The notes beneath the pieces were generated by a model. The model worked only from the letters and a program-made list of their open reading frames with translations. It ran no database searches and was not told where the DNA came from. A DNA stretch of 21,878 nt from NCBI GenBank assembly GCA_043767805.1, contig JAYUGC010000169.1, positions 1 to 21,878 on the forward strand, read 5' to 3'. The first letter of the stretch is position 1. Every line of letters starts with the position of its first letter. The DNA is from Pseudomonadota bacterium (GTDB lineage: Bacteria > Bdellovibrionota > FAC87 > UBA2466). A program made the translations under genes and the position numbers. Below are positions 16,042 through 16,191 of this stretch, one piece after another.

Positions 16042-16191
16042 ATGAAAACGAAATTAGCATTCCTCGGACTCTGGATGGTTCTCTCGGTGGTTCCCGCTCT
16101 GGCGAAAACCCCCGTCAACGAAGGTCGGACGCCGGTCAACGAAGGCCGCACGCCCGTGAATGAAGGCCGGACTCCGGTCAACGAAGGCTAA
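16042..16191 (+). CDS. 49-aa secreted prepropeptide: signal peptide plus 4 x (K/R)TPVNEG
   Basis: Not in the ORF track. Hand translation gives MKTKLAFLGLWMVLSVVPALA-KTPVNEG-RTPVNEG-RTPVNEG-RTPVNEG*. Supported by an AAGGA SD, an A-L-A signal peptidase site, and repeats that vary at synonymous positions. Confidence 0.85.
   Translation: MKTKLAFLGLWMVLSVVPALAKTPVNEGRTPVNEGRTPVNEGRTPVNEG
16105..16188 (+). repeat. 4 x 21-bp coding tandem repeat
   Basis: aaaacccccgtcaacgaaggt / cggacgccggtcaacgaaggc / cgcacgcccgtgaatgaaggc / cggactccggtcaacgaaggc. Confidence 0.95.

Follow-up and report, generated by a model that had tools for sequence, protein, structure and literature searches.

A predicted secreted heptad-repeat peptide from a very small, undescribed family in a Bdellovibrionota contig

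What is made by a 49-codon open reading frame (ORF) that encodes a signal peptide and then nothing but four heptads, and is its product used whole or in pieces? The ORF lies at 16042..16191 on the forward strand of a 21,878-nucleotide stretch of DNA (contig JAYUGC010000169.1 of assembly GCA_043767805.1), the whole of which we call the window. A first-pass annotation, made from the letters of this stretch, had proposed a precursor cut at the lysine or arginine that opens each heptad, so as to release several copies of TPVNEG or TPVNEGR. We conclude that the ORF is a real gene whose reading frame is under purifying selection. Judged by comparison with three relatives, its peptide belongs to an undescribed and very rare family of uncultured bacteria with four known members, in which cleavage at those opening residues is unsupported. 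We favour, tentatively and at less than even confidence, a mini-protein exported by the Sec pathway that would act intact as a multivalent array, with the 149-aa beta-sandwich protein encoded just downstream as its partner.

The small ORF and its reading frame

The ORF begins with ATG at 16042 and ends with TAA at 16189-16191; its translation is MKTKLAFLGLWMVLSVVPALA followed by KTPVNEG and three copies of RTPVNEG, and then the stop. Coordinates, ribosome-binding site, signal peptide and heptads were all as the first-pass annotation had described them:

16030..16034 (+): Shine-Dalgarno-like AAGGA, 7 nt 5' of the ATG, from direct sequence reading
16042..16104 (+): signal peptide of 21 codons, with n-region MKTK, hydrophobic core LAFLGLWMVL and A-L-A before unit 1
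16105..16188 (+): four 21-bp units (KTPVNEG, RTPVNEG, RTPVNEG, RTPVNEG)
16189..16191 (+): TAA stop, abutting the last Gly codon of unit 4

The signal-peptide cleavage site was placed by the (-3,-1) rule, which leaves a predicted mature product of 28 aa (3005 Da, pI 6.3) with four basic and four acidic residues. AF2 modelling of the 49-aa peptide gave a helix over residues 2-20, corresponding to the signal peptide, and coil over the repeats, where pLDDT was <50 in all five models (model means 53-56). At the DNA level, the array was reported by Tandem Repeats Finder at 16114-16188 with period 21, 3.6 copies and a score of 108, the top of the 16 rows for the window.

The units differ in their codons for Thr (ACC/ACG/ACG/ACT), Pro (CCC/CCG/CCC/CCG), Val (GTC/GTC/GTG/GTC), Asn (AAC/AAC/AAT/AAC) and Arg (CGG/CGC/CGG), as had been listed, and also for Gly (GGT/GGC/GGC/GGC), which had been left off that list. 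Of the 21 columns of the unit, eight are variable, three being those of the K/R codon and the other five third positions. Outside the K/R codon, all substitutions between units are synonymous. If five variable columns are spread over the 18 of codons 2-7, the probability that all of them land on the six third positions is 7e-4 by chance, and a neutral simulation (200,000 runs with the observed 7 substitutions) gave an all-synonymous outcome in a fraction of 9.5e-5.

The first-pass annotation had taken this divergence as a mark of selection on the peptide. The two probabilities bear that out as far as constraint is concerned, but the synonymous pattern alone cannot pick the strand, because an antisense frame (15828..16181) is also open over the repeats, where it reads TGVRPS[F/L], and has its wobble positions in common with the forward frame. 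The forward frame is picked on other grounds. First, it has an ATG preceded by AAGGA. Second, it has a signal peptide before the repeats and a stop right after unit 4. Third, its codon-usage log-odds of 0.287 falls inside the range shown by 16 long ORFs (0.22-0.48), and each of the other five frames scores below zero. Fourth, homologues align with it through the signal peptide, at 49-62% identity.

The annotation had further presented the product as an undescribed secreted peptide of the kind that escapes annotation, which agrees with the lack of any Pfam or NCBIfam family match for it. Bacterial genomes are poorly charted for small secreted proteins below the annotation cut-offs in common use, and this ORF is an unusually clean case, with a predicted mature product that consists of the selected heptad only and relatives that vary in copy number.

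A family of heptad peptides

We scanned 1.84 billion representative proteins with phmmer, setting no length limit, and obtained 108 matches at E <= 1e-3; 28 of the matching sequences were inspected individually, and motif counts were made in 112 proteins. A profile was then built from the window peptide, P0006 and P0020, which 4 proteins passed among 308 candidates. Three homologues share the build of signal peptide plus heptads:

P0006: 56 aa, phmmer E = 6.6e-16, signal peptide + QRPVNDG FRPVNDG YRPVSDG QRPINDG YRPVNEG
P0020: 45 aa, phmmer E = 2.2e-8, signal peptide + QRPVNDG FRPINDG RTPVNDG FRPINEG
P0112: 48 aa, profile-search E = 1.7e-12, signal peptide + TTPVNDG YRPVNDG YRPINDG YRPSL

A search of relatives for variable copy number and variant cores had been advised in the first-pass annotation, and these three proteins supply both: the family architecture is a signal peptide followed by 3-5 heptads of the form x-x-P-(V/I)-(N/S)-(D/E)-G. 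Each of the four N-termini combines a basic n-region and a hydrophobic core with small residues at -3/-1 (A/A, V/A, A/A and A/A). The family also answers the objection, raised at the outset, that the ORF might be a truncated remnant of a longer repeat protein. This reading fails because the homologues are themselves only 45, 48 and 56 aa long and two of the three stop directly after N-E-G, like the window peptide; by this comparison the ORF encodes a real small protein and no remnant.

The four members together hold 17 units, 16 of them complete. Among the complete units, Pro at position 3 and Gly at position 7 are invariant (16/16 each), position 4 is V (12) or I (4), position 5 is N (15) or S (1), and position 6 is D (10) or E (6). 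The first two positions are looser: T (6) or R (10) at position 2, and K/R in only 5 units at position 1, the other 11 having Q, F, Y or T. Arg stands directly before Pro in 11 of all 17 units, and a basic residue is present at position 1 or 2 in 16 of the 17, the exception being TTPVNDG, which has no basic residue at all. The mature peptides are 26-35 aa long (2.9-3.9 kDa, pI 5.7-6.3, GRAVY -1.2 to -1.4), and in each of them K+R equals D+E (4/4, 4/4, 5/5 and 3/3). N-E-G followed by the stop is common to three of the four members, even where the internal units are N-D-G. As read from these sequences, the targets of selection in the family are P(V/I)N(D/E)G, the heptad register and the charge balance, and the K/R that opens each unit of the window peptide is no family feature.

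Apart from P0006 and P0020, the phmmer matches reflect low-complexity repeats alone, in longer proteins that are unrelated, and we left them out of the family. Several larger proteins, which have a signal peptide, a lipobox or membrane segments, do have look-alike heptads:

P0016: VLPVNEG, eight copies, in the tail of a membrane protein
P0072: YAPVNEG, four copies, in a lipoprotein-like protein
P0065: DTPVSDG-type, eight copies, in a lipoprotein-like protein
P0031: VTPDNEG-type, 14 copies

In these four the heptads are segments of proteins of 98-727 aa, whereas in the window peptide the array is the whole mature product. They show no similarity to it outside the repeat, so these linkers of larger extracytoplasmic proteins are probably convergent with the window peptide.

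Further searches underline how rare the family is. When the peptide was used in a word-index search, it retrieved itself alone out of 7 candidates (26-86 aa), and an atlas search gave a best score of 0.82, within the range of shuffled sequences. TBLASTN against plasmid and phage collections gave no match below E = 0.1, and Rfam gave 0 matches on the whole window. A degenerate two-core DNA pattern, which matches the window 3 times, was run against one genome per species for 185,579 species; it hit three loci (in a Solirubrobacterales metagenome-assembled genome, Terrimonas and Mycetocola), in each of which the motif lay in no signal-peptide ORF, and which we rejected as chance or other repeats. 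Because the pattern matches the window and yet found only those three loci, the family and the window's own genome are absent from this collection. In the literature searched, the motifs TPVNEG and RPVNDG were absent, PVNDG and RPINDG matched in 3 unrelated papers only, and a search for PVNEG was obscured by 'HPVneg'.

Three minor observations concern similar repeats elsewhere. The Terrimonas ginsenosidimutans locus (NZ_JAKLTR010000004.1, 9899-10242) contains 21-bp-type repeats (RWPMNDG / RWPMADE / HRPSFIG units) in which several frames of either strand are open; it looks like a non-coding or fast-evolving stretch unrelated to the peptide family. Within the window, TPVSDG, of the type found in a P0006 unit, occurs once in the C-terminal part of an HtrA-like protease (19188-19202, minus strand), probably by coincidence, with about 0.5 such matches expected by chance on a rough estimate. 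PVNGKG in the 427-aa protein encoded upstream of the small ORF was also judged to be a chance match.

Intact array or processed precursor

A mechanism in which TPVNEG(R) is set free by cutting at the K/R that opens each unit finds no support in the family comparison, because that residue is unconserved (K/R in only 5/16) and because Arg-Pro bonds, present in 11/17 units, resist trypsin-type cleavage. The Gly-Arg sites of prohormone type that had been pointed out are likewise particular to the window member and unconserved in its relatives. There is a general caution in this: cleavage sites read from one repeat protein can be that member's accident.

The alternatives involve genes around the ORF. 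Domain scans of the window covered 19 ORFs with Pfam, and 12 of these plus two homologues with NCBIfam. The features needed are as follows:

4646-5668: DUF6782 metallopeptidase-like protein (weak match), predicted secreted
10459..11574: papain-like secreted protease (Pfam scan)
11683..12459: trypsin-like secreted protease (Pfam scan)
14633..15916 (+): 427-aa secreted low-complexity protein, upstream of the small ORF, with no family match
16183..16211 (+): weak 5-pair hairpin over the stop codon of the small ORF, then a T-run; possible leaky terminator (z = -1.0, not significant)
16236..16685 (+): 149-aa protein, 44 nt 3' of the small ORF, with signal peptide, Pro-rich linker, all-beta domain of ~110 aa and two invariant Cys
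16764..18035 (+): GNAT-like protein of 423 aa (Pfam Acetyltransf_1, E = 9e-6)
18118..19116 (-): FHA membrane protein (Pfam scan)
19086..20393 (-): HtrA-like protease (Pfam and NCBIfam scans)
20441..21598 (-): GNAT-like paralogue of 16764..18035 (28% identity over 386 columns, E = 3e-36)

The 149-aa protein is as obscure as the peptide. It had no Pfam, NCBIfam or PDB sequence match, and only two homologues were found, P0003 (58% identity) and P0004 (52%). One of five AF2 models was an eight-strand beta-sandwich with pLDDT 76, the others reaching 42-52; Foldseek with the model gave 0 matches at E <= 1e-3, the best TM (0.44) being to generic folds of the carbohydrate-binding-module, YcnI and cohesin-like kinds. 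An assignment to DUF2541/YaaI was rejected: its atlas score (best 0.79) lay in the shuffled range, and Pfam at E <= 10 gave no confirmation. The homologue P0003 and the peptide relative P0112 agree in their source and in their contig figures (jgi, 2 contigs, longest 4455 bp). This suggests that the two lie on one contig and that the pair of genes may be conserved. We also observed that the N-terminal linkers of P0003 and P0004 are rich in PV and RP(V/I) and of very different length, exceeding that of the window protein by about 20 and 40 residues; the tripeptide R-P-V/I of these linkers recurs in the peptide family.

In the reading that we prefer, transcription may begin at a promoter of sigma-54 type that lies 40 nt upstream of the ATG (plausible, unproven), and the product would be exported by Sec and cut by signal peptidase I after A-L-A. 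What is then released outside the cytoplasm would be a 28-residue, strongly hydrophilic, net-neutral and disordered peptide with one basic and one acidic residue per heptad. It would not be cut at its basic residues into free heptapeptides. Instead the intact peptide would present P(V/I)N(D/E)G turns in a short, multivalent array, the copy number of 3-5 setting its valency, and the secreted beta-sandwich protein encoded 44 nt downstream would be its putative partner, with the peptide as ligand, tether or chaperoned cargo. Because both have a signal peptide, the two are expected in the same compartment. The same type of heptad in the unrelated proteins P0016, P0031, P0065 and P0072, where it serves as uncut linker or tail, speaks for an intact array. 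An intact multivalent ligand of the adjoining beta-sandwich protein would define a new two-gene extracytoplasmic module.

Several points weigh against this interpretation. The family statistics come from only four members and are thin. The conserved gene pair in the relative is deduced from matching contig figures, and the beta-sandwich is confident in only one of the five models, with no informative structural neighbour. Each unit of the window peptide starts with K/R-Thr, which a trypsin-type protease could cleave, and there are trypsin-like genes in the window. Finally, all but one of the 17 units keep a basic residue in their first two positions, which could mark the processing site of an enzyme not yet known.

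These last points lead to the alternative that survives best, a weakened form of the multi-core precursor, in which one cut per heptad is made in the register that the family does conserve (after the invariant Gly or Pro, rather than at K/R), releasing 3-5 heptapeptides as diffusible signals or effectors. This is what is left of the original multi-core idea, its K/R-cleavage form being unsupported, and we think it unlikely. The strict heptad period without spacers, the identical cores of the window member, the copy number of 3-5, the Gly-x composition of all internal unit junctions and the several secreted protease genes in the window would all suit it, as would the near-constant basic residue. 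The layout is also workable, as shown by the Kex2-processed repeat proteins (KEPs) of fungi, such as yeast alpha-factor and the ustiloxin type, for which excerpts of two papers describe a secretion signal followed by a tandem short motif in variable copy number (PMC7329392, PMC6339444). Against it stand the scarcity of K/R at position 1, the frequent Arg-Pro, and the unit without any basic residue. Moreover, the units of one precursor differ from each other (Q/F/Y at position 1, V/I, N/S, D/E), so that a mixture of products would result; beside the small ORF we recognised no gene for a dedicated protease, transporter or receptor; and similar heptads are plain linkers in larger proteins.

The likeness to KEPs is one of layout: in both, a secretion signal is followed by almost nothing except tandem copies of a short motif, in variable copy number. 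KEPs, however, are eukaryotic and have their units split by dibasic K-R/R-R sites that are cut in the Golgi, whereas the present family has a single basic residue per unit, at an unconserved position and mostly before Pro. The conserved (di)basic site between all units that defines KEPs is thus absent from the peptide family. To our knowledge, no Kex2-like enzyme is known in bacteria. A fuller bacterial counterpart of multi-copy prohormones and Kex2 repeats, in which the cuts of each heptad are set by Pro or Gly, the product is a diffusible signal in an uncultured lineage missing from the species-representative genomes, and the beta-sandwich protein is its binding or presenting partner, strikes us as rather less probable again than per-heptad processing as such. 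Should processing occur, this would be the first analogue in bacteria of the multi-copy peptide precursors of fungi and animals.

Signalling propeptides of the RRNPP type (Phr, PapR, AimP) had been offered as another likeness. They are found in Bacillota and their phages, yield one mature C-terminal peptide, and are encoded beside a gene for a TPR-type receptor. The window peptide resembles them in being a small Sec-exported precursor of about 40-60 aa, but it has four contiguous heptads and no pro-region, and no Rap/NprR/PlcR/PrgX/AimR-type gene was found among the 19 ORFs scanned, so the comparison does not hold. The first-pass annotation had itself seen no RRNPP-type receptor in the window, rightly: no RRNPP/TPR receptor, RiPP (peptide made on the ribosome and modified after translation) maturase or transporter was recognised among those 19 ORFs, and the sole TPR-like match in the window lies inside LemA and is sub-threshold (E = 0.001; 19.5 bits, where the cut-off is 27).

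A decidedly improbable alternative is that the peptide acts on secreted proteases of the organism itself, as a pseudo-substrate, decoy or modulator, its disordered K/R repeats occupying or titrating the nearby trypsin-like and HtrA-like enzymes. The genes for the trypsin-like (11683..12459), HtrA-like (19086..20393) and papain-like (10459..11574) proteases do lie within the same 22 kb, and resistance of Arg-Pro to trypsin-type cleavage fits a binder that escapes consumption. Yet this is conjecture: the peptide has no similarity to any known protease inhibitor, the protease genes are neither adjacent to nor co-oriented with its gene, and the window member itself has K/R-Thr bonds that can be cleaved.

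Slightly poorer still are the prospects of a RiPP precursor with a Sec signal, whose heptads would receive a modification either before export or after it, such as acylation by the GNAT-like enzyme encoded two genes downstream. That gene has the same orientation, no terminator-like site lies in between, and Sec-signal RiPP precursors are known in Gram-negative bacteria. These are the bufferins (BufA/DUF2282), metallophores that need conserved Cys together with MNIO (DUF692) and DUF2063 genes, according to excerpts of PMC11626156; like them, the window peptide is small and has a Sec signal peptide, and it would be expected in the periplasm if the cell is Gram-negative. Unlike them, it has no Cys, and there is no MNIO or DUF2063 gene in the window. 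It also lacks Ser and aromatic residues, leaving Thr only. No MNIO/DUF692, YcaO, radical SAM, lanthipeptide synthetase or RiPP recognition element (RRE) was recognised among the 19 ORFs scanned; of the genes that mark cyanobactin-like and other multi-core RiPPs (PatA/PatG-type proteases, YcaO, radical SAM, RRE) none was recognised nearby, the GNAT-like gene being the only same-strand enzyme gene there. A GNAT would require cytoplasmic acetyl-CoA while the peptide is exported, and the GNAT-like paralogue 2.4 kb away has no adjoining peptide gene.

We give just as little credence to a regulatory upstream ORF or secretion-monitoring arrest peptide, which would control the 149-aa gene in cis while the peptide itself had no role. 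Arrest peptides (SecM, MifM, VemP, ApdA/ApdP and the RQH family) are short ORFs whose N-terminus holds a localisation signal and whose extreme C-terminus holds a conserved motif, in excerpts of two papers (PMC7897499, PMC10987492), one of which describes peptides with the motif abutting the stop, some of them upstream of non-Sec genes (PMC10987492). The small ORF is similarly short, has a localisation signal, stands directly 5' of another gene and has a conserved C-terminal end, N-E-G-stop being kept in three of four members despite N-D-G internal units. Pairing is also predicted between the T-run of 16183-16211 and the Shine-Dalgarno site of the 149-aa gene 44 nt on, a site whose modelled unpaired probability is 0.08. 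However, this probability is the same with or without a terminating ribosome at the small-ORF stop, so that in the model the ribosome left the site paired, and the hairpins are no better than those of shuffles. Nor is the ORF upstream of secA, secDF or yidC, the downstream gene being no Sec/YidC component; it has no RAPP-like motif, and N-E-G-stop matches no arrest motif described in excerpts of PMC10987492. Its body is a tandem repeat, and 4-5 perfect repeats under purifying selection would be unnecessary for arrest.

A non-functional chance ORF over a 21-bp tandem DNA repeat is barely credible: the ORF is very short, only four members are known and the antisense frame is open too, but the divergence is synonymous-only, codon usage is positive in the forward frame alone, and homologues are conserved through the signal peptide with E down to 6.6e-16 (phmmer) and 5.6e-34 (profile search). 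The rest of our belief is assigned to functions outside the readings listed here.

Transcript signals and remaining genes of the window

A near-consensus sigma-54 promoter had been claimed upstream of the small ORF. We took the consensus to be TGGCACG-N4-TTGCW, and found these two features between the upstream gene and the ATG:

15987..16002 (+): sigma-54-type -24/-12-like element TGGCACGCCTTCTGCA, 40 nt upstream of the ATG
15988..16013 (+): inverted repeat of 10 pairs (2 of them G-T) with a T-rich tail, overlapping the sigma-54-like element, from the terminator-like scan

The element has 1 mismatch to the consensus and is the sole such match in the window, against 0.15 expected, so the description of its sequence was accurate. 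At least one such match was present, however, in 13 of 100 shuffled windows, and a looser pattern gave 2 matches in the window against 0.45 expected. Because shuffles also give such matches and because the same bases form a T-tailed hairpin, the promoter reading of this sequence is plausible and unproven. The inverted repeat may possibly terminate the upstream gene (14633..15916) or serve as an operator; folding of 15917-16045 was no better than that of shuffles (z = -0.10). No sigma-70-like promoter was found in 14400-18200, and no gene for a sigma-54 enhancer-binding protein among the 19 ORFs scanned with Pfam.

Downstream, the GNAT-like gene follows the 149-aa gene after a 78-nt gap, with no terminator-like site in between, and is possibly, though uncertainly, part of the same transcript. 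This protein has no PDB sequence relative, and its paralogue (20441-21598) has no Pfam match at all; the two paralogues flank the genes for the FHA membrane protein (18118-19116) and the HtrA-like protease (19086-20393). A PDB sequence search with the upstream 427-aa protein gave no informative relative, and PADLOC and PHROGs applied to 7 neighbours gave only generic protease and acetyltransferase domain matches.

Predicted secreted peptidases are unusually dense in the window, with four in 22 kb (DUF6782-like, papain-like, trypsin-like and HtrA-like), which suggests a proteolytic or predatory lifestyle. Gly-rich tandem repeats, of periods 3-21, occur at 13668-13777 and encode the GGGGF/GGW-type C-terminal tail of a TPM-domain protein (13076-13795) that sits in a LemA-TPM-TPM gene row. 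In a gene-poor stretch at 8040-8300 (+) there is an 86-aa ORF with a signal-peptide-like N-terminus (MGYLKLGLALALTFSGAVHA...), a further candidate small secreted protein.

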